36,469 nucleotides of DNA from Deltaproteobacteria bacterium (GCA_016202395.1 JACQOV010000010.1:1-36469), one strand, 5' to 3'. Shown: positions 12,663-36,469, numbered from the stretch's first letter. The notes: a model not told the origin generated them from the letters alone. Numbers and translations: made by a program.

Positions 12663-13433
12663 TTAGCTCCTCTTCTTTGGACTCATCGCATCCCCCACCG
12701 GGTCGGTCTCGTCTTGGATGAATCTCTTGAGGTTATGAAGCTCCTGATAAACCCTCGCCATCTGCGGAGCCACATGCTCCCCCCACAGCGCCGTGACCCA
12801 GTTCAATAACTCCTCTTTGTCCTTCTCTTGAACCTCCCCCTTCTTTTTTTTCTCACTGTAAGCTTTAAGCTTCTCCTCCAATAACTGAAAATAAGTGTAC
12901 ACCGCGGTAAAAGGATTGTTCACATTATGCCCTATCTCGTTAACGACGCGGTAGCGGTGTTCTAACCGATCCAGCGCCATCGCCCTCTCCTGAGCCATCT
13001 TGAGATCGAGAACCGCTTTGCGCAACTCCTCATTCTGTCGCTCCAAGGTCTGCTTCTGTGCCTGATCCGCGATCAACATCTGAAGAATGATCACCACCTC
13101 CTCCTCTTTCCCACTCAAGGGCTTGCGAAGGTATTGATGGATCTTCCCCTCATTAATGGCTCGAAGCAACAAATCCTCATCCTGATAGGCCGTGAGCATC
13201 ATCCGTGGAACGTTTGGGGCCACCTTCCGACACTCCTTCAAAAACTCGATCCCGCTCATCGAATCCATCTTCTCATCGGCAATCACCACCTGAATCGGCT
13301 CCTTTTTAAGAAACCCCAGCCCCTCCTCCCCACTCTGGACCGTGAGCACCCTAAAATGCTTCTCAAATTGACGCCGAAACAGATAAAGCTGATCCTTCTC
13401 ATCATCCACATATAATATCGTCGGTTTCTCCAT
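12663..13433 (-). CDS. Receiver + coiled coil + HisKA-like (DHp) protein with no HATPase domain
   Basis: Canonical REC (YVDDE, IADEKM, LTAY, RKP); H-box-like NEIGHNVNNP; no N/G1/F/G2 boxes; GAGGAGG RBS; paralog of 29804-30556. Confidence 0.88.
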   Translation of the reverse strand: MEKPTILYVDDEKDQLYLFRRQFEKHFRVLTVQSGEEGLGFLKKEPIQVVIADEKMDSMSGIEFLKECRKVAPNVPRMMLTAYQDEDLLLRAINEGKIHQYLRKPLSGKEEEVVIILQMLIADQAQKQTLERQNEELRKAVLDLKMAQERAMALDRLEHRYRVVNEIGHNVNNPFTAVYTYFQLLEEKLKAYSEKKKKGEVQEKDKEELLNWVTALWGEHVAPQMARVYQELHNLKRFIQDETDPVGDAMSPKKRS

Positions 13434-13451
13434 CGATCGCCTCCTCTTCTT

Positions 13452-15947
13452 TTACGATCCCTTCACTCCCCCTATGGGAAACAACAGAACCATACGGGTT
13501 CCTGTATGAATATCACTCTCAATCCCCATCTTCCCACCATGGCGCTCCATCACTTTCCTGATAAACGAAACCCCCATTCCGGTGCCCTTTCCAACGGCTT
13601 TCGTCGTGAAGTAGCCACGCATCACCTTTTCCACGTTCTCTTTAGGAATGCCGCACCCGTTATCTGCCACCTCCAGTCGGATCCATTCCCCTTCTGGGCC
13701 AATCCGCACCTCGATCCTCCCCTTCCAACCCTCCCCCCTCCCCTCGGCTTCCCTTCGAGATTGAATCGCATCACGAGAATTGATAAATAGATTCATGAGA
13801 ACCTCGTGAATCTGTCCTGGATTGCCCGGAATCCGTGGCACTCCTTCCGCACACTCGAGCTCAAAATTAATCCCAGAACGGCCGATATCATAATCCAAAA
13901 TCCGCTTCACCAACTCCACACACCCCTTCAAATCCACAGGTTCCACTCGGTCACTCATCCGAACAAACTCCTTGATCTCTTTCACCATCTGGACCGAGGT
14001 CATCAAACAATCATGCTGAAACCGCTGATCCTCCTCGATTTGCTCAAAGAGCTTGGCCAAATCTGCATGCTGAGAAATCCGAGGATCCTTTCGAAGCGTT
14101 TCAAACCCCTGTACTAAAAGCTCCGTCCCACCGGCCAAAGCCCCAATCTTATTCCCCACTTCATGCGAAAAAGAGGCCACCAACTGGCCCAGAGTCCCAA
14201 TTTTATCCAGTTGTGCGTTGATCTCAAACTGCTCTTCCCTCTGCTGAAAATGCTCCGCGTTGGCCAACGCCACTGAAACGCTCCGGGAAAGCATCTGAAG
14301 GAGCTCGACATCCTCCGCGCCATACAGCTCCCCGCTCTTCTTTCGCCCCAATAATAGAAAACCGGTGAGCTTCTCCTGAAATCGAATCGGTAACGCCAAT
14401 TCAACCCCCATCCGAATCAAATCGGGAAGCATCTTCTCCCGAACTTCCTGATACCGGGGATCATTGGCTAACTCAAAAGCCATCACCCCACTCTTCTCAT
14501 CACTCAACACTTGAACCAAAGGATGATTCGCTGAAATCTCTTGGACCCACTTGGAATTCCACACCTCTCCAGCCCAAAAAACATAGCTCCCCTCTTTCTC
14601 ACTCCATTGAAACAACGCCACCTTCTCGACCCTCATCGCCGAGTTAATCCCCTTGATGAGTTTCCGAGCAATGTGCCCCGTATCTAACAACTGGGTCAAA
14701 GATTCACCCACGGCCTGGAATGCCTCCCTATATGTCTGCTCCCGATCTAAAGAAGGCTTGTTTAAAAAGCCTTTCACAACATCAAAAAACACGGTCGTGA
14801 AAACGAGCATGCCTACAAAAATCAACGTCGGAGCATAGGCGCTTTGCATAAACGCTCCTCCTATCCCTAAAGCCCTCGCCCCAAACACAATCAGAGCCGC
14901 ATAAAAGGCCGATAATAGGTAGCTCCACAACGCGGATAGAATACTTCTCTTAAGAAAAAGACTCACCTGAAACAAGTCATGCCGCGCCACGGCCAAAGCG
15001 ATTCCAAATGGAAAAATCACCAAAGGAAGTAAATACAGATTGGGTGGAACCGGGATCTGTAGCAGCCAACAATAGACTTTTAGCAAAATAGGAATCGATA
15101 CTATCAATACGGTGGCCATCAACACCACCCGAGCCCGAAGACGCTCCACTAAAATGTAAGACTCCCGATAAGCAACCGCAGACGTGATCAGAAAGATTCC
15201 GACTGCAATCATTATTAAACCTGCATTGAGGCGGTCCATAATTAACCATGTCCATTTACTGTCATAAAGGGAGACTTCCAAGAAAGCCGCGATCAACAAA
15301 CTAAAAAGAAACGGATATTGTGAAATAGAAGGGAATCGTTGCAAGATCCTTTGTTGTGAGGGAAAGCGAAGACCCAAATGAATAATCGACGCTGGCAATA
15401 AGCTCACTATAAGAAGATAGAGTCGATAAAAACGGTGTGTCGACACCGCATCGAAACTTAAAAGGAGAAAAAAGGCCACATTAAAAGAGAATAATGACAA
15501 AGAGCGCGCTACTGCTGTTTGAGCCCCAAATCCTACGATGGCGCCATAAGCGAAATAAATACAGCTTGTAAACAACACCGTTCCCAAAAGCCAAAAAATG
15601 TCAATCCATTGTATTTTAATCGGATGTAGTTCTAGAGTACGAGACTCTTTCCCACTACTCAACGTAACTAAGAATGGAATCCCTTCGCCCTTCCCCTCAA
15701 TATGGCTATAAAAATCCTTCCGATTTCTAATATCAACTCCATCAATGGCAACTACCTTAGCCGGATAGCGAACAAACTCATCTAATCCTTTCCAACTTTG
15801 GAAACGATTGGATGAAACAACGAGATTGGGATAAATCAGGAAACCTGTGGAAGGTTTCTCCAACCATCGAATAGCATCTAAAGTGCAAATGGCCCCCAAT
15901 ATCAAAAAGCTAATGAATGCTACCCATAGTATCCACCTGTCTGACAT
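13452..15947 (-). CDS. Membrane sensor histidine kinase (PDZ-like periplasmic region, multi-TM, GAF, HisKA, HATPase)
   Basis: 831 aa; VVAIDG PDZ-like strand, roughly 9-10 hydrophobic segments, GAF (LALPIRFQEKLTGFLLLG.KKSGELY..ED.ELL), H-box SHEVGN, NLFINSRDA, DNGCGI, FTTK..GKGTGMG. Confidence 0.9.
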   Translation of the reverse strand: MSDRWILWVAFISFLILGAICTLDAIRWLEKPSTGFLIYPNLVVSSNRFQSWKGLDEFVRYPAKVVAIDGVDIRNRKDFYSHIEGKGEGIPFLVTLSSGKESRTLELHPIKIQWIDIFWLLGTVLFTSCIYFAYGAIVGFGAQTAVARSLSLFSFNVAFFLLLSFDAVSTHRFYRLYLLIVSLLPASIIHLGLRFPSQQRILQRFPSISQYPFLFSLLIAAFLEVSLYDSKWTWLIMDRLNAGLIMIAVGIFLITSAVAYRESYILVERLRARVVLMATVLIVSIPILLKVYCWLLQIPVPPNLYLLPLVIFPFGIALAVARHDLFQVSLFLKRSILSALWSYLLSAFYAALIVFGARALGIGGAFMQSAYAPTLIFVGMLVFTTVFFDVVKGFLNKPSLDREQTYREAFQAVGESLTQLLDTGHIARKLIKGINSAMRVEKVALFQWSEKEGSYVFWAGEVWNSKWVQEISANHPLVQVLSDEKSGVMAFELANDPRYQEVREKMLPDLIRMGVELALPIRFQEKLTGFLLLGRKKSGELYGAEDVELLQMLSRSVSVALANAEHFQQREEQFEINAQLDKIGTLGQLVASFSHEVGNKIGALAGGTELLVQGFETLRKDPRISQHADLAKLFEQIEEDQRFQHDCLMTSVQMVKEIKEFVRMSDRVEPVDLKGCVELVKRILDYDIGRSGINFELECAEGVPRIPGNPGQIHEVLMNLFINSRDAIQSRREAEGRGEGWKGRIEVRIGPEGEWIRLEVADNGCGIPKENVEKVMRGYFTTKAVGKGTGMGVSFIRKVMERHGGKMGIESDIHTGTRMVLLFPIGGVKGS

Positions 15948-15952
15948 GCTCC

Positions 15953-18295
15953 CTAACTTTCTTTCATTGTCAAATCAGTTTTTTCGGAAACAATTGTTTC
16001 GACTCTAGCAAGCGAAGCCATACGAATGGGTTTGATCAACATTAACAATGCCGGTAAAACGATAACGTCTCCTACTAAAGCGGCCATAACTGCAATCCCA
16101 GAAAGAAGACCGAAATTGACCATCGGAACAAAAGACGAAAAAACGAGAACCCAAAAGCCTGCTGCCAATACGAAAGAAGTATAAACAATGGGCTGTCCTA
16201 CTTTTTCCATGGTTGCTCTCAGCGCTACACCATAATCCCCTTTCTGTGTTAATTCATGACGAAAACCATGGAGAAAATGGATTGTGTCATCGACTGCCAT
16301 AGAGATGACAATAGAGGCTATCGTACATGTCCCCATGTCCAGAAAAATCCCCCACTTCCCCATGACTCCCAAAATAATAACGACTGGAAAAACATTCGCG
16401 GGTATAGCAATCAAGGCTAACCGCCAGGATCGAAGAGCAATCATCAAAACAATGAAAATCAATACAAACGCCAACGCAAAACTCTGAATCTCTGTATCAA
16501 GAACCTCCACGGTCATTTTTTGGCCCAACCACAAGTCTCCTGTCAACTGAATATTGAGCTTTGGATCAAAATTCTGAGCTAGATGCTCTTTAATCTGCTC
16601 TGACATAGCGACAAATTCTTTGGAGGGCAAAATCTTTGAACGCGCCGTCACACGCATACGCTTTCCATCTGCTGAAAGATAACTCTTTATCCCCCTCTCA
16701 CCCCCCATATCTGCCACAAATATTAGCAATCGTTCAATAGAATTCTTTTCTGTAGGAATTGTATAGAAGCTGGGATCCCCTCCATGAAGTTCTTGATTGG
16801 TCTTCTTTAAAATATCGGCAAGCGAGAAACTTTTATCAATAGATGGAAAGCTCTCAAGATATTGTTGCAGTTCTTCCATCTGGTGTAACACAGGATACTC
16901 TAAAACTTCGCTACCGTCCTTGTAACCCACAGAAAACTCTACCGCAGGCCAATCACCAATCTTTTCGGTGACTAATCGCTCATGTTGCATGACTTCGCTA
17001 TTCTCTTTTAGAAATTGCAAATGATAGGTATCGACAATAACCCTAGAAACCCATGTCCCAAATAAGAGGACAAGAAGAAGAGCCCCAAGGAGAACGGGGC
17101 GCCGATATCTATCGGCAAAGCTCCCAAGAATAACGGTCAATTCCTTAATAACAGATCCTTCTTTTTTCATATGGGAGAGAGGATCCCACTTCAAACGACT
17201 CAAAGCTAAGGGAAGAAGTGTGAAAGTTAAGAGATAAGAAACAACGACTCCAAACGCAGAATACAATCCAAACTCCTGAACCGTAGTTACGGAACTCGTA
17301 AGCAAGGAGAGAAAACCTAGAGATGTCGTTACACTCGCCCACAAACAGGGAGTCGCTACTTGAGAAACTGCTTCTAACACAATATGATGTCGATCTTCTG
17401 TTGGCCTGAACCTTTGCCGATAAGCGCTCAATAAATGCGTACTATTTAAAACGCCATAGACAAGTAACAGCGGTAAGACCACTTCTGTCAATGGACTCAA
17501 AAACTTTCCAATGGCCGCAACAAACCCAAGAGTCCATATGACGCTAATACCCGCAATCATCAGTGGGGTTCCTGGAACCCATGAATTACGGAAGATATAA
17601 AATAAAACTAAAAAGATCATGAGCAACAAGATGGGCGTGATGATTCGATTATCTCGCTCGTAGGCTTCTTCCAATGAAACCTGATATACGGGGATTCCTC
17701 CTAAAAAAACCGTGAGCCCCTCTATCTTTTCTGCGTTCTCAATAATAGAGCGAAGCTCTTGAACCAATTCCCTCTTGTAGGTAGGGCTTGATGATTTCTT
17801 GAGAAGGATTAAGACATTGGTTGCTTTACCATCCTTAGCAATCAAAAAGGTCTTGTAATAAAGTGGATCGGAAAGGACTCGCTCTCTAACGGCTCCCATA
17901 TCTGAAGATTCAAGGGTAGATAGCTCATCTTCTAAAGAACCGACAACTAAAATCTCCCCCTGGTTATAGGCAGAGTTAAAATTAGTGACACTCAAGACTT
18001 GTTCAACCTGCGGAAGTTCCTCAAACTGGTGAGTCATCCGATCCACTAATCTCAATACGCGAAGATCAAAAACATCTTCATAAAAGTAGTGAACCGATAT
18101 AAATTCGTCCGTTCCAAACTCTTTATAAAAATCGTTATAGTACTGAAGGTCAGGATCATCGGGGTGAAATGTTGCAGCAATGTCTGTATTGACTTTTAAC
18201 TCTTGAAATTGCCAACCCAAGTAAATCGTTGGAATCAAAACAATGAGGATCGTTGCTAGAGCGTGGTCCAAAACCCAACGAACAATACGAACCAT
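15953..18295 (-). CDS. MMPL/RND family transporter
   Basis: 780 aa; two repeats of TM + soluble domain + 5 TM; AVDDTIHF and TTSLGFLSL...VQEFG motifs; GGAG RBS. Confidence 0.9.
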   Translation of the reverse strand: MVRIVRWVLDHALATILIVLIPTIYLGWQFQELKVNTDIAATFHPDDPDLQYYNDFYKEFGTDEFISVHYFYEDVFDLRVLRLVDRMTHQFEELPQVEQVLSVTNFNSAYNQGEILVVGSLEDELSTLESSDMGAVRERVLSDPLYYKTFLIAKDGKATNVLILLKKSSSPTYKRELVQELRSIIENAEKIEGLTVFLGGIPVYQVSLEEAYERDNRIITPILLLMIFLVLFYIFRNSWVPGTPLMIAGISVIWTLGFVAAIGKFLSPLTEVVLPLLLVYGVLNSTHLLSAYRQRFRPTEDRHHIVLEAVSQVATPCLWASVTTSLGFLSLLTSSVTTVQEFGLYSAFGVVVSYLLTFTLLPLALSRLKWDPLSHMKKEGSVIKELTVILGSFADRYRRPVLLGALLLVLLFGTWVSRVIVDTYHLQFLKENSEVMQHERLVTEKIGDWPAVEFSVGYKDGSEVLEYPVLHQMEELQQYLESFPSIDKSFSLADILKKTNQELHGGDPSFYTIPTEKNSIERLLIFVADMGGERGIKSYLSADGKRMRVTARSKILPSKEFVAMSEQIKEHLAQNFDPKLNIQLTGDLWLGQKMTVEVLDTEIQSFALAFVLIFIVLMIALRSWRLALIAIPANVFPVVIILGVMGKWGIFLDMGTCTIASIVISMAVDDTIHFLHGFRHELTQKGDYGVALRATMEKVGQPIVYTSFVLAAGFWVLVFSSFVPMVNFGLLSGIAVMAALVGDVIVLPALLMLIKPIRMASLARVETIVSEKTDLTMKES

Positions 18296-18343
18296 TTCAT
18301 CTCCCTTTCATTGATTTACACCAGAACATGATAAAACAACAGT

Positions 18344-19812
18344 TTAAGCAACCCTTGGCAACTCCATTTCTCTTTCCTCGACGAAACGCCCCGATGCATC
18401 ATATCTACCTTCTTCGACTTGTTTTAAATAAGGGATATAGGCTTGCATTTCTTGAAGGAACGACTTCATCATAAGGCGACGAAACCACTGGTAAAAACTC
18501 ACAACTATTTGGCCCTTAAAAAGGTTTGTTAAAATACTCCTCCAGGAGTAGAAGGAACGGTAAGCATCGTAAATGCCCTGCTGAAGCTCGCTGGGCTTTA
18601 TATTTTTTGGGAAATGAGTGATGAACTGGAGATTATAATAATCCCAATTCTTCTGAAATATCCTATCAGAAGAAATGACCCTCTCGGGTCCTTCTGGAAA
18701 CTCTGTGAGTACATTCATCATCATCCAACCTGCGCCACTTTTCTGAGTCCACTCTAAGGTTTGTTTAACGGTGTCTTTCGTGTCATTATCACTTCCTAAA
18801 ACAAAACCAGCACAAACTTGAATGCCATAACGACGAATCCTCTGTATCGAGTCTTCCACTTTTTCGATCGTCTGTTTTTTATCATAATCATCGAGTGTTT
18901 TATTATCAACGGATTCCACTCCCATAAATAACCAAGTAACACCTGCTCTTTTCATTAAATCGAGCATCTCTAAATCTTCAGCGACCTCATAGCGTGCAAA
19001 CACCAATGAATGTGACTTTACACCACTTTTGATGATCTCTTTTAAAACCGCTTTCGTCCTCTCTCGATTCACCCCAAAATAACTATCAAGAATAATGAGC
19101 CAGTTAGGAAAGCCAGGAAAGAAAGACGTCTTACTTCTTAAATCCTCTGCCACGGCTTCGGGACTTCGATGACGCATCGTCTTCATCCCGATCCGCCAAC
19201 AAAATTTGCACGGATAGGGACAACCACGTGAAGTTTCCAAAAAATGCGCATGGGCTTTGGCCTGAAGAAAAAGCTTGATAGGATTTAATTGTTGATAACC
19301 ACAAACTAACGAAAGGTCGGGAATTATATCAAAATTCTTTAAAAGTTCTCTCGAAGGATTATGGTAAGGCACGCCGTTTTTAATATAAGAAATTCCTTTT
19401 ACACCCTTCAAATCACCGCCATTGTTAAGCATTGTTAACAATTCTAAAATGGTTTCCTCCCCTTCTTCTCTAACCACATAATCTACATGCTGAATAGCAT
19501 CATCGGGTAACATCGATGCATGAGGTCCACCCAAAACAACGGGAATATTTCTACGTCCTTAATCCTTTGAACCATTTCATAAACGCAATTAACACTACAA
19601 GTAACAGCCGAGAAGCCGACTAAATCTGCTTGTAATACCCTTTCCCAAGGAATAGGAGCGATCCTCTCCATAAAAACCTCTACTTCATAACCCGCTTGTT
19701 TCAAAACGGTACCTATCAATGGCAATGCATTTTCGGTCATGTAAAAGCGTTTTTCAAAATCCGGGAATCGAGGATTCGGAGAAATAAGCGCAATTTTTTG
19801 GATAGGCTTCAC
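18344..19812 (-). pseudogene. B12-binding radical SAM enzyme (class B type) with a 1-nt frameshift near 19556 (true pseudogene or sequence error)
   Basis: The N-terminal frame from GTG 19812 (KIALISP...LPLIGTVLKQAGYEV...DLVGFS) joins the C-terminal frame (NIPVVLGGPHAS, VVREEGEET, ETSRGCPYPCKFC, MGVES) only if one base is restored at ATT AAG GA^CGT. Confidence 0.85.
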
Positions 19813-29803: not shown

Positions 29804-30556
29804 TCATCTTTTTTTAAGAGGCAACCCTGCGTCCCCTACAGGGTCGGTCTCATCTTGGATAAATCGACTCAGATTCTTAAGCTCCTCACGCAACCGCTCC
29901 ATCTCCGGCGCTGCGATCCCGATCATCTTGATCGCTTGCTCGAACATCTCTCGCTTCTCAGCGTCACTGAGCTTCCCACTCTGATACTGCGTCGCCATCT
30001 CCCCCAACATCTGATAACACGTATACACCGGCGTCATCGGATTCCGAAGGTTGTGTCCTAACTCATTCACGACTCTGTGACGGGATTCTAATCGGGCAAT
30101 GGCAACATCCTTCTCCTTCGATAACTTGACCTGATCTACCAAATCCCTCAACTCTTTGTTCTGCCTCTGTATCACTTCCTCCTTCAAATAATTCTGGTAA
30201 CACAGGTTGAGAAGGCTTAAGACCTCCGATTCTTTCCCATCGAGGGGCTTGCGCACATAACCTTGCACTTTCCCTTCATTGACCGCTTGAATCACTAAGG
30301 CCTCTCCTTCCTGGGCCGTGAGCATGATCCGGGGAACGTGAGGCGAAATCCTCTGTGCCTCTTTTAAAAACTCGATCCCATTCATCCCTTGCATCTCCTG
30401 ATCCGCTACCACCACATGAATGGCGTTCTTCTCAAGAACCTCTACCCCCTTCGGTCCAGAGTCCGCGGGGATCACCTTAAAAAACTTCCCCAGCTTCTGC
30501 TCAAATCGCTCCAGCTGCATCCGATCATCATCCACATAAAGCACGGTCGCATTCAT
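29804..30556 (-). CDS. Receiver + coiled coil + HisKA-like (DHp) protein with no HATPase domain (paralog 2)
   Basis: Canonical REC (YVDDD, VADQEM, LTAQ, RKP); H-box-like NELGHNLRNP; ATG 30556 overlaps the upstream stop (ATGA); GGAGG RBS. Confidence 0.88.
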   Translation of the reverse strand: MNATVLYVDDDRMQLERFEQKLGKFFKVIPADSGPKGVEVLEKNAIHVVVADQEMQGMNGIEFLKEAQRISPHVPRIMLTAQEGEALVIQAVNEGKVQGYVRKPLDGKESEVLSLLNLCYQNYLKEEVIQRQNKELRDLVDQVKLSKEKDVAIARLESRHRVVNELGHNLRNPMTPVYTCYQMLGEMATQYQSGKLSDAEKREMFEQAIKMIGIAAPEMERLREELKNLSRFIQDETDPVGDAGLPLKKR

Positions 30557-31857
30557 CGCGGGCCTCCTTCGGAAAGGGGGGCTTCCACTGGGAGCCAAAC
30601 GGTAAACTCTGTCCAAGACCCCAGCTCACTCTCCACCGAAATGGTCCCCCCATGGGATTCTACCACCTGCTTCACAATCGCCATCCCCAGGCCCATTCCC
30701 TCCCCCTCTTTCTTGGTGGTGTAAAAAGGATCGAAGACTCGCTGCCTCACCTCCTCACTCATGCCAGACCCATTGTCTCGAATCTTCACCTCGATCCCAA
30801 CTCTCTTCTCTCTCTCTTGAGACTGAGCCTGAATCCCAATCTCTCCTCTCCCCCCTCGACACCTCTCACAATTCAAAACAGCCGCTCCGGAGTTCCCCAA
30901 AAGATTCGACCAAATCCTGACAATCTCCCCCCCTCGAGCCCGAATCTTCGGAATTAAATCATAGACCCGCTTCACCTCAATCCGCCCTCTCCAACGAGTC
31001 GCATACAACTTGAGAATCTTATCAATCCCCGAAACCACATCCACCTCCTCCACCTTCCCCACGCTCCTCCCATACGCATTTAACCCCTCCACCATGTTCC
31101 CCATCAATTCTACAGCCACTTGGATATCCTGTTCCACGAATCCCTTTAACTCCTCATAAATCCCCTTCCCCTTCTCCTGAACAAAGGGGCCCAGCTTCTC
31201 GATTCGATCTCTCAAGAGATCTCTAAAAGTCTGAAAGGAATCATAGGGACCCTTTAAATCATGGGCGACCTGGGTGGACATCTTCCCAATAAGCCCAAAT
31301 TTTTGCTCCTCAAATAATTGCCTCGTCCTCTCCTCCACCCGCTTCTCTAAATGGTGCGAATACTCTTCCAGCTTCGCCCGGGCTTGTCCCAATGCCTCAT
31401 TCTTCTGGGTTAACTCATCGTTCTGATGACTGATTTTCTCATAGGCTTGTTCCAACTGCCGATTCTTCTTTTTTAATTCCATACGTAGATCATATACTTC
31501 CAACACCTGATTCAAATAATTGATGAACAATTTTTCTTGACCCACCAGTGGCTTTTGAAAGTAACCCCATACATGGGCTTGATTAATCGCCTCCGTCATC
31601 AAAGAAACATTCTTATACGCCGTCAGCATAATCCGTATCGTCTCAGGATAAAGAACCTGCACTTGCTTGAGAAATTCAATTCCGTTGATCGGATCCATCT
31701 TGTAATCGGCTACTACAATAGGAATCTCCCTTTCCCGAAGATATTTTAAGGCCTCCTCCACCGTCTGAGCGGTAATCACCTCATATCGACCTTCTAAAAG
31801 CAGCCTAAAACTCTCTAATGCCGACGCATCATCATCTAAAAAAAGAATAGATCTCAT
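30553..31857 (-). CDS. Cytoplasmic hybrid histidine kinase (REC - coiled coil - HisKA - HATPase)
   Basis: REC (FLDDD, VADYKM, LTAY, QKP), H-box AHDLKGP, NLLGNS, DNGSGM, FDPFYTTK, GMGLG. Confidence 0.92.
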   Translation of the reverse strand: MRSILFLDDDASALESFRLLLEGRYEVITAQTVEEALKYLREREIPIVVADYKMDPINGIEFLKQVQVLYPETIRIMLTAYKNVSLMTEAINQAHVWGYFQKPLVGQEKLFINYLNQVLEVYDLRMELKKKNRQLEQAYEKISHQNDELTQKNEALGQARAKLEEYSHHLEKRVEERTRQLFEEQKFGLIGKMSTQVAHDLKGPYDSFQTFRDLLRDRIEKLGPFVQEKGKGIYEELKGFVEQDIQVAVELMGNMVEGLNAYGRSVGKVEEVDVVSGIDKILKLYATRWRGRIEVKRVYDLIPKIRARGGEIVRIWSNLLGNSGAAVLNCERCRGGRGEIGIQAQSQEREKRVGIEVKIRDNGSGMSEEVRQRVFDPFYTTKKEGEGMGLGMAIVKQVVESHGGTISVESELGSWTEFTVWLPVEAPLSEGGPR

Positions 31858-31880: not shown

Positions 31881-34800
31881 CTATAGAACAACTTCGTTCT
31901 CCTCCTTTTTATCATTTTCGTCAGAAACTTCAAGGTGAAGTGGTAAAATCACTTTAAACTCCGACCCTTTTTGAACTTCACTTTCAACCTCAATCTTCCC
32001 TTGGTGTCGCTCTACAATGCGATAAGTGATACTCAATCCCAATCCAATACCTTGTCCAGGAGGTTTGGTAGTAAAAAAAGGATTGAACAGCTGGCTCAAA
32101 TTTTCCTTAGGAATTCCACAACCTGTATCTTTGATAGAAACAGAAAACAACTTTTCTCCTCGCTCGGTACGAATCCATATATCTCCTTCTTTATTCATCG
32201 CAGAAATTGCGTTAGTGAGAAGGTTCATCCAAATTTGGTTGGGTTCGCCTCCCCTGGCCTGAAGCCATCCATCCGCACAATATTCCTTATGGATCCGTAT
32301 GCGCCCCTTCAATTGATGCTCCAGCAGCCTCAAAGTGGCATCTAACCCTTCATGTACATCATAATCCACAATCGCAGTCATACCCGAATAGGCAAACTTC
32401 CCTAAACTCTCAGTTACCTCCGCAGCTCTGATCACACCCTCTCTCGCCAAATCTAATATCTTTAAATCCTCCGCTTTTTCTTTGGAAGGCAAATTGCTCG
32501 ATTCAAGTCGATCTCGCAATGCCATGACACTAAGGCCAATCGTGTTCAAAGGATTATTCACTTCATGCGCCAAACCCGCCGAAAGCTGGCCAAGAGCAGC
32601 CATTTTTTCCTGCTGAATGAGCATCTGCGTTTGCTCTTCCACTTTCTCCTCCAGATTCTTAGCGTAATCCTTGAGTTTTACTTGAGCTTGTTTTAATTCT
32701 CCATGAGTTTGCACTAGTTCTTTTGCCTGTTTTTCCACGTCCTGTTTGGCACTACCTAAGGCTCGATAGGCAGAAGCTAATTCCAATGAACGTTTCTTAA
32801 ATTGCGTTCCCAAAAATCCAGCCCCATACCCCAGAAACACCATCGATCCTCCCATTAACCAAAAATGAAGGGCGCCAATTTGAACTCCACTAAAATGAAC
32901 AGATCCCATATATCCTAATAAGGACCACACTCCTAATAAGATCCCACCCCAAACATCCAGAATTAATCCCGCATAAACCACCACGATTGAATAAATTAAT
33001 AGGAGTGACGGAAAAGCCGCAACATTGAATAAATCAATCAACACACTAATCATCACTACATCTACCACCATGGCCAATACAGTCATTGCAGTGGCCAGCC
33101 TATCGTACCGTGCTAGAAAAAAATAAACTCCGCTCAATGAGAACTGAACAAGCGCTGTAACTAAAATCGGCTTTAATGGAACCGAGATAACCTCTAATAC
33201 CGAAAACGAGACCACAAAAATAACCAGGATTAAATTTAGAGCAACACGCAGGTAAATATGAGGCGCTTGGGAACCACGGGTCAGCCAATTTGAAAGAGGC
33301 TCTATCTCCCATTCTTTTTCAAAGACCCGAATCTGGTCTTTTTTTTTCCGCTGCAATGGACGAAAGAGGATCAGAGAGGCTGGAAGAACAAAAAGATCAC
33401 CCAAAAGAGCGGCGATGACTGCAAAGCTCGATAATAATCCAAATCGCGCCACGGGAAGATAACCTGAGAAACCCAACACCGAAAAACCAACCGTGAGTAC
33501 CAAGGCCGTAAATAGGATCGGCCTCCCCACGACTTGCAAAGTATTACGAATCGCATCTTCGTAACTCACTCCTTCTTCTATTTCTCTGCGCCAACGGAAG
33601 ACATAATGAACCGTATCATCAATAACGATCCCAAAAAGAATGCTCGCAATCATGGCTGTTCCCACATCCAGCGCAATCCCCAGCCATCCCATGAGCCCCA
33701 AAGTAATAACGATGGGAAACAGGTTTGGTATTAAACTTAAAATGCCCAATGAAAAGGACCGAAGAACAAACAACATAACAACACAGATTAAAACGAAGGC
33801 CACGGTAAACGACTTTATCTGGCCAGTTAACAATAAGTGCACCAGGTGAATGTCTATAACAGACCCTCCAGTCATCTGAACTGTCATAGGGGTCTTCAAA
33901 AGAGAGGGAACCTCTCCAGAGATTTTCTTCAGAACCGTATCGGTCTCTCCGGAAGGCATAAAACGCAATGAGGTCCAAATGTTGGCCTTCGAAAGATCAT
34001 TATTGACTACTAATCGACTATAGGGAGATCCTTCCGTTAAGGCTAGCAATCGACCTGGATTACTGTCAGGCAGGCGATACTCAGAAATATCACCTCCTTG
34101 AAAGGCTTGATGAGTGCCTTTAATAGCATCCACAATCGAGAACGTATTTCCAACCTCTGGAAGTTCCTCCAAGTATTCTTCTACACGATCGATATCTTTT
34201 AATACTTCTGCATCCATCAACCCTTCAGGCTTTCCTGTGTCTAAAACCAGCCATGTTGGAACCCAACCCCCTTGATGAAGATCCACGGTATGCAACGCCT
34301 GCACCCACTCCGATTCTTCTGGAAAAAGTCGATCAGCATGCGTATCCGCCTCCAATTTCGTAATTCCCCACATAAAAAAGCCCATCACAATAATTGCCAA
34401 ACTAAAAATCGCCATGGGAAACCGAATGGGCCACTCCGCTAAACGTCCCATGAGTCTCTCACTCAACCATCCCTCCATACGAAAAGAAGAGACCTCCTGG
34501 GACTCAGATTCGCCTCCTAGGGCATAAACCCATAAAATAAAAGTGATCAGAAGTAACACAGCCATGCCAAAGGCCGCTACCACTCCAAACTGTTGGATTG
34601 CAGCCAGATCGGCAGCGCCCAGAGAAACAATTCCGAGAAAGGCCGTTAAAGTATTCAAAATACATGGCGGACCTACCTCTCGAAGGGTGATGGCAATTGC
34701 TTCTTTTTTGGGAGTTGTTTTAATCAACATGCGATAATGGGAAATGAGATGTAGAATATCCATCGCGCCATAAATTAAAAAAATAACAAGAAGGGCTTGA

Positions 34801-35660
34801 GAAAAAAGGGTCACTTTATAAGAAACTAAACTAGAGAATCCCATCGACCAGATAGTCCCTAAAGTAACTACTAAAAGGGAAACCACAACAATCCTCCAAC
34901 TTCGAAAAAGAAGATAGATCGTGACGACGAGAAGGAACAACAACAAGGGGATCACTGTCAAAACATCTTTTTTAAAAACTTCATGAAGGAGCAATTCGAT
35001 GGCAATGGTGCTGCTGGTGTAACATCGGGTGGTCCCGAAGCAACTGCCTCTAAGAACCTGTCTAAAATCCCGAGCCAATTGAAGACGTTCTTTCACCTGA
35101 AGAGATTTTGGATTGATGTAGGCCCAAACAATAGATAGCTGCTCATCCTCAGAGATGAGAAGCGTTCTTTTAAATAGCTGGCTTGACAGAACCTTACTGC
35201 GAATAGAAGCCACCTCTTTAGGAGACAACCCGGAAGTCCTTCCCTCTAGCGAAAACAGTTCTATCTCTTCTCCTGAAGCAACGGGGAAACCTGGATGGGT
35301 CAAGCTAATAACAGCTTCAACGGCAGGAAATTCTCTCACCTTCTGTGTAATGGAATCAATCGTACTTAAAACCTCTCGATCAAAAATATGGGGGGCTTCC
35401 ACTCCTAGGGCAATATGATCTAGCCCGCCAAATTCTCCTAAGTACTCTTCTTCATAATATCGCAATACCGAATCATCCGGATTGAACATGGCCTGCTGAC
35501 GAAGATCTATTTTGAGTTGCAAAAGAAAATAACCAAAAAAGAGGGTTGGGACGGCGAGAATAACGATCGTGAGCCATGGCCGCATCCAAATATACTCAAA
35601 AGCCTTCCGTAGCTGTAGGAGGATCTTTTGCTTCATTAAAGAGCCGAAATTAGGCGCCAT
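31881..35660 (-). CDS. MMPL/RND transporter - histidine kinase fusion protein
   Basis: 1259-aa single ORF: ~770-aa two-repeat MMPL (GAMDILH, GIVIDDTVHY), about five further TM helices, coiled coil, AHEVNNPL, NLLTNA, DTGCGI, FNPFFTTK..GQGIGLGL. Alternative start ATG 35636. Confidence 0.9.
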   Translation of the reverse strand: MAPNFGSLMKQKILLQLRKAFEYIWMRPWLTIVILAVPTLFFGYFLLQLKIDLRQQAMFNPDDSVLRYYEEEYLGEFGGLDHIALGVEAPHIFDREVLSTIDSITQKVREFPAVEAVISLTHPGFPVASGEEIELFSLEGRTSGLSPKEVASIRSKVLSSQLFKRTLLISEDEQLSIVWAYINPKSLQVKERLQLARDFRQVLRGSCFGTTRCYTSSTIAIELLLHEVFKKDVLTVIPLLLFLLVVTIYLLFRSWRIVVVSLLVVTLGTIWSMGFSSLVSYKVTLFSQALLVIFLIYGAMDILHLISHYRMLIKTTPKKEAIAITLREVGPPCILNTLTAFLGIVSLGAADLAAIQQFGVVAAFGMAVLLLITFILWVYALGGESESQEVSSFRMEGWLSERLMGRLAEWPIRFPMAIFSLAIIVMGFFMWGITKLEADTHADRLFPEESEWVQALHTVDLHQGGWVPTWLVLDTGKPEGLMDAEVLKDIDRVEEYLEELPEVGNTFSIVDAIKGTHQAFQGGDISEYRLPDSNPGRLLALTEGSPYSRLVVNNDLSKANIWTSLRFMPSGETDTVLKKISGEVPSLLKTPMTVQMTGGSVIDIHLVHLLLTGQIKSFTVAFVLICVVMLFVLRSFSLGILSLIPNLFPIVITLGLMGWLGIALDVGTAMIASILFGIVIDDTVHYVFRWRREIEEGVSYEDAIRNTLQVVGRPILFTALVLTVGFSVLGFSGYLPVARFGLLSSFAVIAALLGDLFVLPASLILFRPLQRKKKDQIRVFEKEWEIEPLSNWLTRGSQAPHIYLRVALNLILVIFVVSFSVLEVISVPLKPILVTALVQFSLSGVYFFLARYDRLATAMTVLAMVVDVVMISVLIDLFNVAAFPSLLLIYSIVVVYAGLILDVWGGILLGVWSLLGYMGSVHFSGVQIGALHFWLMGGSMVFLGYGAGFLGTQFKKRSLELASAYRALGSAKQDVEKQAKELVQTHGELKQAQVKLKDYAKNLEEKVEEQTQMLIQQEKMAALGQLSAGLAHEVNNPLNTIGLSVMALRDRLESSNLPSKEKAEDLKILDLAREGVIRAAEVTESLGKFAYSGMTAIVDYDVHEGLDATLRLLEHQLKGRIRIHKEYCADGWLQARGGEPNQIWMNLLTNAISAMNKEGDIWIRTERGEKLFSVSIKDTGCGIPKENLSQLFNPFFTTKPPGQGIGLGLSITYRIVERHQGKIEVESEVQKGSEFKVILPLHLEVSDENDKKEENEVVL

Positions 35661-35698: not shown

Positions 35699-36469
35699 TC
35701 AAGATGCCATTGGAAAAATCATTGCATGATCCTGCTGCATCGGACGATGGAAACGATCCGATTCTTCTACCTGGCCCACAGGCAGAAGTTTCTCCTCCAT
35801 TAAATGGTCTGATGCATCATACATATCTTCTTCAATCTGTTTTAATTGAGGAATGTAGGCCTCCATTTCGCGCAGATGTGGCTTCATAACGATGCTCCGA
35901 TATAATTGGAAAAAGGCCGCTCCGACTCTTCCTTTGAGAAGATTTGTTAAGATATTTCGCCATGAGAAAAATAAACGATAACCATCAATAACTTTCCGCT
36001 CCAGTTCACTCGGTCTCATGTATTTTGGATAATGAGTTACAAAGTGGGTTGTATAATAATCCCAATTTTTTTGAAATACTCGGTGGGAGGGAATCAATTC
36101 TTCCTCTTGCCCATTATGGAAATCTGTCAGTATATTCAGCATAACCCATGTAGCGCCGGATTCCTGAGCAAACTGAATATTTTTTCTCCAAGTGTCCTTT
36201 GTGTCATCATCGCTTCCTAAAACAAAACTGGCACAAACATGCATACCATGACGCCGAATCATATCTATGGATTTTCTCACTTTCTCGATGGTTTGCCTCT
36301 TGTCAAAATGATCCAAGGTGTCATTGCTAATCGACTCTACTCCCATAAATATCCACAGGACTCCTGCTTTCTTCATGAGTCGCAACATTTCTATATCGTC
36401 TGCGATTTCACAACGGGCGAATAAGAAATAACCCGCTTTTACTCCGCTTTTGATTATTTCTCTTAATAC
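35699..36469 (-). CDS. Radical SAM enzyme, C-terminal part (5' end outside the window), paralog of 18344-19812
   Basis: The frame is open to the window edge (VLREIIKSGVK...); it aligns by eye with copy 1 at MGVES, QTIEKV, FVLGSD.DTKDT, FQKNWDYY, PSEL and EM.AYIP.LKQ.EE. Confidence 0.88.
   Translation of the reverse strand, partial: VLREIIKSGVKAGYFLFARCEIADDIEMLRLMKKAGVLWIFMGVESISNDTLDHFDKRQTIEKVRKSIDMIRRHGMHVCASFVLGSDDDTKDTWRKNIQFAQESGATWVMLNILTDFHNGQEEELIPSHRVFQKNWDYYTTHFVTHYPKYMRPSELERKVIDGYRLFFSWRNILTNLLKGRVGAAFFQLYRSIVMKPHLREMEAYIPQLKQIEEDMYDASDHLMEEKLLPVGQVEESDRFHRPMQQDHAMIFPMAS

Follow-up and report, generated by a model that had tools for sequence, protein, structure and literature searches.

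The 36,469-nucleotide stretch of deltaproteobacterial DNA analysed here as a whole and referred to as the window (GCA_016202395.1, JACQOV010000010.1:1-36469), which corresponds to contig C90 of a 1.9-Mb, 108-contig assembly of 89% completeness, carries at positions 31881..35660 on the minus strand an open reading frame (ORF) in which an MMPL/RND transporter is followed by a histidine kinase. This locus raises the question whether the two halves are indeed encoded as one polypeptide and, if so, whether the transporter provides the input of the kinase. On the first point the answer is plain, as the continuous frame is real. On the second we favour, at slightly better than even confidence, a true single-chain fusion of a working, proton-driven, HAE3-like MMPL/RND lipid exporter with a polytopic sensor kinase in which signalling would be coupled to the transporter. 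The mechanism of such transporter-coupled sensing, and with it the physical contact between the two parts, the way in which the signal travels, its output and the transported substrate, are matters that we infer from the composition of the gene and from its relatives.

Domain composition of the fusion protein

The ORF starts with ATG and encodes 1259 amino acids followed by a stop codon, its translation being free of internal stops. The encoded protein is composed, in this order, of an MMPL/RND part with 12 transmembrane (TM) helices, a 30-residue linker, six further TM helices, a long helix and a HisKA/HATPase_c kinase. The transporter part (residues 1–769; 33354..35660, minus strand) was delineated by Pfam, NCBIfam, hydropathy and motifs. 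The Pfam model MMPL (PF03176) scores 80.8 bits against a cut-off of 20.5 and does so in two stretches which correspond to two internal repeats; the second repeat (residues 616–796) is also matched by the ACR_tran and Patched models, and the region of TM2–6 by the models Sterol-sensing (49.1 bits) and Patched SSD (19.7 bits). Hydropathy peaks at residues 29–47, 233–378 (five helices), 416–434 and 615–766 (five helices) add up to 12 TM helices, as assigned by a simple Kyte-Doolittle scan and not by a topology predictor, and leave large periplasmic loops at about residues 50–225 and 437–610, i.e. after TM1 and TM7. Charged residues inside the membrane are Asp301 in TM4 and Asp681/Asp682 together with His685 in TM10, the Asp and His columns of TM10 being invariant across 40 aligned MMPL proteins. 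By analogy with MmpL3 and AcrB, we take Asp301 and Asp681/Asp682 to be the proton-relay positions.

With respect to family assignment, the best NCBIfam transporter model is HAE3 (TIGR00921) with 196 bits, below its cut-off of 351.9, which the stand-alone MMPL of another gene cassette in the window (cassette 1, see below) likewise fails to reach with 245.7 bits. The HpnN model (TIGR03480) scores 88.6 bits and thereby lies far under its cut-off of 751.85. In the kinase part, the DHp/HisKA domain (residues 1023–1084; 32409..32594, minus strand) is recognized by Pfam with 25.5 bits, slightly below the cut-off of 26.9, and the catalytic ATP-binding (CA) domain HATPase_c (residues 1142–1242; 31935..32237, minus strand) with 90 bits against a cut-off of 26.4. 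According to a motif check and an alignment, the phospho-acceptor His1032 (codon 32565–32567) is embedded in an H-box string common to three homologues, and the strings of the N, G1, F and G2 boxes are all present. The top NCBIfam kinase rows describe AtoS-, ZraS- and EspC-like cores, all under their cut-offs, and the nearest solved kinase core is that of ZraS (pdb-code: 9jfj; E 2.2e-25).

The fusion is an MMPL/RND protein, certified neither as HAE3 nor as HpnN, which is joined to a HisKA-type kinase. Both halves look intact and functional, judging from the transporter part, which retains 58 of the 63 columns with a conservation of 85% or more among the 40 aligned MMPL proteins (stand-alone members retain 52–62), including the invariant Asp and His of TM10, and from the presence of every kinase box. 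An earlier description of the locus made from the DNA alone (the sequence-only reading) had claimed an uninterrupted 1259-residue frame, a two-repeat MMPL with both TM Asp motifs, the H-box His at the codon given above and a full set of ATP-binding boxes, all of which is borne out by the translation and by the family and motif searches.

The junction and its run of nine adenines

The border between transporter and kinase coincides exactly with a run of nine adenines (A9; T9 on the plus strand) at 33339..33347 on the minus strand, which provides the codons of Lys772–774. It is one of eight A/T runs of nine bases in the 1.9-Mb genome, which contains none longer, and several of the remaining ones likewise sit within long open frames. 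The A9 run may be a relic of the fusion event, a slippage site or merely three AAA lysine codons. Since homopolymers are classic sites of false or true frameshifts, the possibility of a frameshift was checked in the shifted frames, in independent assemblies and in a diverged second copy of the junction.

If A9 were misread or misassembled, or had undergone a frameshift only very recently, the locus would consist of two genes, or into a transporter followed by a dead kinase. Apart from the homopolymer itself, such a scenario could draw on the finding that one base more or less yields a transporter of normal length, as with eight or ten adenines it would end at 785 or 780 residues, respectively, compared to 780–790 residues in its paralogues. 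However, the split would leave a kinase without a start codon. The separated kinase frame is open only from 8–16 codons upstream of the A9 run, and its first ATG, GTG or TTG is a GTG that lies 41 codons past the run, already within the first sensor helix, and ahead of which no Shine-Dalgarno string was found. The statement of the sequence-only reading that no canonical start lies between the junction and the first sensor helix holds for these split frames; in the actual sequence an in-frame TTG (Leu769) is located just before the run, with no Shine-Dalgarno-like string upstream of it.

Moreover, parts of the window are represented in seven groundwater runs belonging to three studies, and four of these runs were examined across the junction in the form of Logan contigs. 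Three contigs bridge A9 (X1, 33056–34595; X2, 33283–33530; X3, 33091–33407), each with at least 56 letters on either side and with 0 gaps and 0 other letters, and a contig from another study (X5) stops within the run without bridging it. The read support across the junction for which the earlier description had called is provided in this form by three runs, and a metagenome protein described below (P0121) reads through the same junction. One open frame with all domains, the unchanged contigs of three runs and the startless kinase of a split gene together establish that the A9 fusion frame is real, leaving to an artefact a share that is close to negligible.

Runs of about nine A or T are also known to cause transcriptional slippage. 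Polymerase or ribosome slippage, or slipped-strand mutation, at A9 might therefore generate two products, a transporter-only and a full form, and thereby set their ratio or switch the kinase off. The location of such a rare run exactly at the domain border would suit this scenario, as would the stop codons which both shifted frames reach within 5–11 codons. It is weakened by the hairpin adjacent to the run, which folds at chance level (z −0.11; 90 of 200 shuffles fold equally well), by the other nine-base runs inside long open frames, and by the codon usage of the fusion gene, in which AAA is the commoner lysine codon (35 versus 22) and a lysine-rich stretch after the last TM helix is to be expected anyway. 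A length variant was not observed in the contigs examined, which hide rare variants, and none of the seven runs in which the window is represented was listed as RNA. A scan for promoter-like sites gave four against 10.0 expected, none of them close to the junction. Altogether, we consider the formation of two products quite improbable.

An unfused counterpart in the same genome

A tblastn search of the same assembly with the individual parts revealed all three parts of the fusion in the same order on contig C101. Identities amount to 48.8% for the transporter (query residues 18–775), 31.8% for the six-TM module (about 793–964) and 40.9% for the kinase core (about 967–1252). According to the ORF map, these parts are distributed there over two genes, namely an MMPL of 790 residues (C101 1740–4112, minus strand) and a 6TM-kinase of 517 residues with its own ATG (C101 145–1698, minus strand), which are separated by a spacer of 41 nt containing a Shine-Dalgarno string. 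Over its full length, the C101 kinase can be aligned with residues 793–1259 of the fusion (35% identity, E 5e-104). In a four-way alignment, the stand-alone kinases P0131 (identical to that of C101) and P0151 have their start Met at a position inside the fusion linker, five residues ahead of a conserved Pro. The fusion is therefore equivalent to an MMPL with a shortened C-terminal tail plus a kinase minus its first codon. As the remaining MMPL paralogues of the genome are only about 24–30% identical to the fusion transporter, the C101 pair constitutes its specific split counterpart. This unfused paralogous pair suggests that the fusion originated from an MMPL gene followed by an adjacent 6TM-kinase gene, when the stop codon of the former, the initiator Met of the latter and the spacer between them were lost. 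The Rosetta-stone relation proposed in the sequence-only reading exists, although with a different partner, as the separate MMPL and kinase genes of cassette 1 were named there and the counterpart is the C101 pair (49% and 35% identity).

Cassette 1 (12663..19534, minus strand), characterized by Pfam, NCBIfam and pairwise comparison, is an unfused relative of another type. It consists of a radical SAM gene (18344–19534, minus strand), an MMPL gene whose product is 30% identical to the fusion transporter (15953–18295, minus strand), a multi-TM GAF kinase gene (13452–15947, minus strand) and the gene of a receiver protein (12663–13433, minus strand), a response regulator of 256 residues with a receiver domain and about 150 residues devoid of a Pfam match. 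The kinase has just the catalytic core in common with the fusion (27% identity), its sensor being built of a multi-TM and a GAF region, unlike the six-TM module of the fusion.

A third paralogue of the 6TM-kinase (C38:8795-10159, minus strand; 454 residues) has no adjoining MMPL, and tblastn detected no MMPL match anywhere on contig C38. It is followed by a protein of 516 residues with a putative receiver domain, as read from its N-terminus only, and adjoins genes that by their look may encode ATP synthase subunits. In this region of C101 (L009 145-6525), the split pair follows the genes of a class I/II aminotransferase (422 residues) and of a 374-residue protein with a weak GNAT match, and it adjoins truB, a DHH protein gene, infB and nusA. 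This neighbourhood may represent an amino-lipid pathway.

A second fused copy and other MMPL-kinase fusions

When 5.8 billion proteins were searched by a word index, 120 entries including the query were listed; among these, none besides the query covers more than 61% of the fusion. In an exhaustive phmmer search with fusion residues 60–1259 against 1.84 billion representatives, of which the best 150 were inspected, the protein next after the query is P0121 (517 residues, 498.7 bits, 55% identity, fusion residues 720–1248). The exact build of the fusion was found in the query and P0121 only among these best 150. The sequence of P0121 has no initial Met but sets in halfway through transporter helix 11; as it is encoded on a metagenome contig of 2310 bp, it is cut at its 5′ end by the contig end. 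It contains in one frame helix 12, the Lys-Lys-Lys stretch, a linker of equal length, the six-TM module and the kinase. Identical residues number 47 of 50 in the transporter tail, 16 of 30 in the linker (with 0 gap columns), 101 of 156 in the six-TM module, 27 of 46 in the connecting helix and 81 of 219 in the kinase core. The core of P0121 is 42% identical (203 bits) to that of a receiver-kinase hybrid encoded directly downstream of the fusion in the window, and 41% identical (188 bits) to that of the C101 kinase. The kinase cores thus seem to be exchanged or to diverge fast while the joint between transporter and sensor is kept, as far as these alignments can tell. The likeness between the P0121 core and the receiver-kinase hints at an exchange of cores between neighbouring paralogous genes. 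Two metagenome scans for the DNA of P0121 were made; the first one with linker patterns gave 594 pattern matches and no relative, the second one 16 loci each matching the kinase core alone.

Fusions of different construction turned up in the same searches. MMPL, HisKA and HATPase_c are combined in three of the 119 other listed proteins (P0004, P0005 and P0007; 989–1001 residues), which represent a direct type with the H-box about 30 residues past TM12 and no extra membrane module. Scanning of seven long phmmer matches revealed a kinase in three, P0156 (999 residues, again of the direct type), P0160 (1544 residues) and P0247 (1551 residues). The latter two contain a long extra region between MMPL and kinase; P0247 is composed of MMPL, GAF, HisKA and HATPase_c, and the kinase core of P0160 consists of HATPase_c alone. 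Residues 955–1541 of P0247 align with residues 181–819 of the cassette 1 kinase (E 1e-21), which implies that the pair type of cassette 1 is fused as well, in another lineage. The clusters of P0005 and P0156 comprise nine and five members, respectively, originating from NCBI, ENA, JGI and Logan and from contigs of up to 293 kb, so that the direct-type fusions are not one-off errors. In all six of these public proteins the MMPL precedes the kinase core, which is made up of HisKA and HATPase_c in five of them, and their transporter part is only 26–30% identical to that of the query.

Judged by its predicted domains, the combination is accordingly not unique but occurs in at least three fusion architectures in public protein sets, and the independent fused homologues asked for by the sequence-only reading exist in the form of P0121 and of these differently built proteins. 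The combination is already present there unremarked. Where named at their source, the members of the fusion clusters are called transporter, RND exporter, HAE3 protein or hypothetical/uncharacterized, and one short member histidine kinase.

No match spanning both halves was obtained in the 40 other genomes searched. Two long MMPL frames in these genomes are those of L021, which lacks a kinase, and of L013, which carries a cyclic-nucleotide-binding domain. MMPL fusions with cyclic-nucleotide-binding domains are also found in five of the 119 other listed proteins (the L013 frame extends over L013:1354-4122), and other add-ons comprise a saccharopine-dehydrogenase-like NAD(P) domain, DUF1302 and an N-terminal TPR region, non-kinase add-ons being seen in P0006, P0031, P0038, P0069, P0075, L013, P0125, P0236 and P0246. 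MMPL proteins thus seem to accept many regulatory add-ons.

Linker, six-TM module and connecting helix

The segment between transporter and kinase core consists of three elements. The cytoplasmic linker (residues 770–799; 33264..33353, minus strand), delimited by a four-way alignment, includes the Lys-Lys-Lys stretch and is probably flexible. It is followed by the six-TM membrane module (residues 800–955; 32796..33263, minus strand), identified by hydropathy and with homologous modules in the N-terminal parts of P0121, P0131 and P0151. A long helix in the cytoplasm, of the signalling-helix or coiled-coil kind, then provides the connection to the kinase core (residues 956–1022; 32595..32795, minus strand) and was defined by alignment.

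The hydrophobic segments of the module span residues 803–952 and were read as six helices, in place of the roughly five of the sequence-only reading. Loops are short in the four homologues, with Lys/Arg on alternating sides, and an invariant Gly-Gly turn divides the long fourth hydrophobic segment. An even number of helices is required because the kinase has to return to the cytoplasm after a 12-TM transporter, and the six-TM count together with the loop charges agrees with a cytoplasmic kinase. Within its membrane-spanning segments the module has two conserved polar residues, an Asp and a Gln, according to the four-way alignment. The connecting helix carries ahead of the H-box a string conserved in all four aligned sequences, and the whole segment is helical in a low-confidence AlphaFold2 model. 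This model of residues 700–1259, based on a four-row alignment, reached a mean pLDDT (predicted local distance difference test) of 57.6 and a pTM (predicted template modelling score) of 0.37 and was too poor for a fold search; it displays five helices over the module, one of them 41 residues long at the place where we assigned two TM segments and the Gly-Gly turn. A prediction of the complex between the C101 MMPL (790 residues, 39 rows) and the N-terminal 190 residues of the C101 kinase (4 rows) gave 0.00 in both runs, which were made without controls and carry no weight for or against a contact.

The resemblance to PilS-type membrane sensors noted earlier did not find support in the family searches. 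For the region 780–971, zero Pfam families were obtained at E ≤ 10, though the library includes the PilS 6TM model. PilS and MASE sensor modules are comparable in that their TM helices are closely packed, joined by very short loops and followed at once by a helix and a kinase core, but no Pfam model of this kind matches the fusion module even at that threshold. Look-alike clusters retrieved by a language model (MASE2, MASE11, 6TM_PilS and MASE6–8; 0.93–0.96) are to be taken as leads only. As judged by these comparisons, the six-TM module belongs to no described family. Its sequence homologues in the searches made are limited to P0121, P0131, P0151 and the C38 paralogue. A word-based search with the six-TM part had P0121 as its sole match, and a species-genome scan with the four-way alignment yielded 21 loci, all matched from query residue 278 on and none with the module.

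Possible coupling between transporter and kinase

Based on this architecture we propose a first scenario for the function of the fusion. The six-TM module would be positioned beside the TM bundle of the transporter in the membrane and read either the state of the transporter, i.e. its substrate load or its transport cycle, or the same lipid. As the linker is probably too loose to transmit force, coupling might be lateral, from the TM bundle to the module, or proceed via a shared lipid. The signal would then pass down the long conserved helix to the DHp/CA core, and His1032 might subsequently feed the receiver-kinase and receiver-DHp proteins encoded downstream (see below). The B12-type radical SAM enzyme encoded upstream would modify a lipid, the production or export of which is probably tuned by the output. 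The conformation or load of the transporter is suggested as the signal by the repeated independent joining of MMPL and kinase, which in one build connects TM12 nearly straight to DHp.

Taken further, HAE3-like MMPL proteins might constitute a recurrent and hitherto overlooked input of two-component systems, in which at least three independent builds (TM12-DHp, six-TM and multi-TM/GAF) and the many unfused neighbours would represent one and the same partnership, measuring the export or load of particular envelope lipids through a coupling of the RND transport cycle to a kinase, and in which the A9 run may give rise to a transporter-only form. To this extended view we assign a tentative standing, somewhat short of an even chance.

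Several points weigh against a transporter-coupled sensor. There is just one further protein of this exact build, P0121, and this is a fragment known as protein sequence. Moreover, the P0121 core has its lowest similarity with the core of the fusion itself (39%, 158 bits), which indicates that the kinase core is not strictly co-inherited with the transporter. The linker is conserved to only 53% between the two proteins and hence probably flexible; a helix running on rigidly from transporter to kinase, as in the direct-type fusions, cannot provide the coupling here. In view of the C38 paralogue without an MMPL, the module can presumably sense something alone. With regard to the frame, the read support consists of contigs and not of raw reads, X1–X3 all stem from one study, X1 may be the source sample, and rare length variants of A9 are dropped in contigs.

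The main rival to a coupled sensor is a real but signalling-neutral fusion, in which the single chain would ensure merely co-location and 1:1 amounts of both parts, while the module senses a membrane or lipid cue on its own and the kinase does not learn of the transporter's state. This rival rests on the loose linker, with its considerable length and weak conservation, and on the 6TM-kinase of C38 that stands alone; the rarity of the exact architecture, confined to two proteins among the best 150 of 1.84 billion, also fits. However, at least three builds of MMPL-kinase fusions have arisen, one of them with TM12 joined almost directly to the DHp helix, which would be difficult to account for if the two parts were not functionally coupled; the linker has kept an equal length in the fusion and P0121, and the adjacency of MMPL and 6TM-kinase is also retained in the unfused C101 pair. 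We therefore regard a neutral fusion as rather unlikely, albeit as an alternative that deserves serious attention.

Coupling in the reverse direction, by which the nucleotide or phosphorylation state of the kinase would gate the transporter, has nothing direct in its favour. It may be seen in analogy to the MMPL fusions with cyclic-nucleotide-binding domains mentioned above, where a cytoplasmic signal probably regulates the transporter. The complete phosphotransfer set of the fusion kinase and the two receiver proteins encoded downstream, which correspond to the layout of an outgoing signal, argue against it and render it highly improbable.

Comparison with known systems

If the favoured coupling of the MMPL/RND exporter to its kinase is correct, the closest functional analogies might be found in CbrA and in the co-sensing of BceAB-BceS, the fusion being a member of neither family. 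CbrA of Pseudomonas (SLC5, STAC and histidine kinase) resembles the fusion in uniting a secondary transporter and a complete kinase in one chain, and in its sequence architecture the fusion shares this one-polypeptide combination of a CbrA-type transceptor. In contrast, the transporter of CbrA is an SLC5 protein with 13 TM helices and that of the fusion an RND/MMPL protein with 12 TM helices and two periplasmic domains; CbrA couples via the soluble STAC domain and the fusion via a six-TM membrane module and a helix; and the substrate of CbrA is an amino acid, that of the fusion probably a lipid. No SLC5 or STAC match was present among the eight Pfam families found, which places the fusion outside the CbrA family proper. 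Both transport and kinase activities of CbrA are reported in PMC7096432, and CbrA is termed a rare “transceptor” in a 2026 preprint (PMC13022988); transporter-kinase fusions are treated in the literature as rarities. In systems of the BceAB-BceS type, a membrane kinase without a real extracellular domain receives its sensory input from the transporter, as stated in PMC11109136. They differ from the fusion in using an ABC transporter, in being made of separate polypeptides and in their role in peptide antibiotic resistance in Firmicutes. The principle by which the kinase responds to the flux through its transporter is established background for these systems.

The nearest solved transporters are the MMPL-type lipid exporters HpnN (pdb-code: 5khn; E 7.7e-11) and MmpL3 (pdb-code: 7nvh; E 2e-10), which match the second TM repeat. 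They share with the fusion the plan of 12 TM helices and two loops as well as the charged residues of TM4 and TM10, for which we presume the same roles. Unlike the fusion they lack a kinase, and the fusion has a B12-type radical SAM gene as neighbour and neither a hopanoid nor a mycolate pathway. Among the RND relatives of eukaryotes, Patched, NPC1 and SCAP are known to link lipid handling to signalling. They are related to the fusion by the sterol-sensing match to TM2–6 and are only distant homologues devoid of a histidine kinase, which signal via other proteins.

Targeted literature searches, which left out supplements, retrieved no description of an MMPL, HAE3 or RND kinase fusion, in line with the sequence-only reading, to which no characterized bacterial MMPL-kinase fusion was known. 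Provided that the coupling holds true, an RND/MMPL exporter wired to a kinase would represent a bacterial counterpart of the lipid-signalling link of Patched, SCAP and NPC1 and would suggest that the cell monitors lipid export directly. The system appears tractable owing to the presence of fused and split forms in one genome and of directly joined forms in other lineages, and a comparison of the fused, split and directly joined forms would make the gating of a kinase by the RND cycle testable. It would also flag database proteins named only as transporters as signalling proteins.

Operon, window and host genome

The fusion gene is part of a tightly spaced minus-strand operon and is preceded at a distance of 38 nt by the gene of a B12-binding-type radical SAM protein (Pfam Radical_SAM; 35699..36469, minus strand), the 5′ end of which is cut by the window end. 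In NCBIfam it comes closest to BchE, PhpK and HpnJ, each with a score far under the cut-off, and it is 57% identical to the radical SAM protein of cassette 1. Downstream, 23 nt past the fusion stop and behind a strong Shine-Dalgarno sequence, starts the gene of a receiver-kinase hybrid of 434 residues composed of REC, DHp and HATPase_c (30553..31857, minus strand), whose core is 33% identical to that of the fusion. The next gene (29804..30556, minus strand; Pfam REC and weak HisKA) encodes a receiver domain and a DHp-like helix with a His residue and no ATPase domain. Its ATG at 30556 is the likelier start because the listed TTG start (extending to 30616) overlaps the previous gene by 64 nt. 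This receiver-DHp protein may be a phosphotransfer or phosphatase partner. A DNA-binding output is not encoded in the fusion operon.

Pairs of radical SAM and MMPL genes occur at four places in the assembly, namely twice on C90 and once each on C36 and C74, and radical SAM fragments are located at the contig ends of C98 and C71. The radical SAM paralogues directly upstream of MMPL genes are 50–70% identical to one another, and MMPL matches are spread over 11 contigs. For a small genome, these cassettes represent a marked expansion of paralogues. The radical SAM/MMPL pairs and the neighbours of the C101 pair suggest, as far as gene content can indicate, a biosynthesis of lipids or amphiphiles.

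The host is an uncultured groundwater bacterium, whose lineage seems to be poorly represented among the searched genomes. All 40 genomes offered as relatives are related at the level of “same domain” only, and the initiation factor IF-2 of the host is 95% and 72% identical to two metagenome proteins and about 60–63% identical to proteins of Desulfuromonas, Thermodesulfobacteriota, Nitrospira and Clostridia. Ordinary housekeeping genes make up what remains of the window, including those for CorA, ABC-2 transport, GAPDH-PGK-TIM, a sigma-54 activator, an Opp-like ABC system and a GH3 protein.

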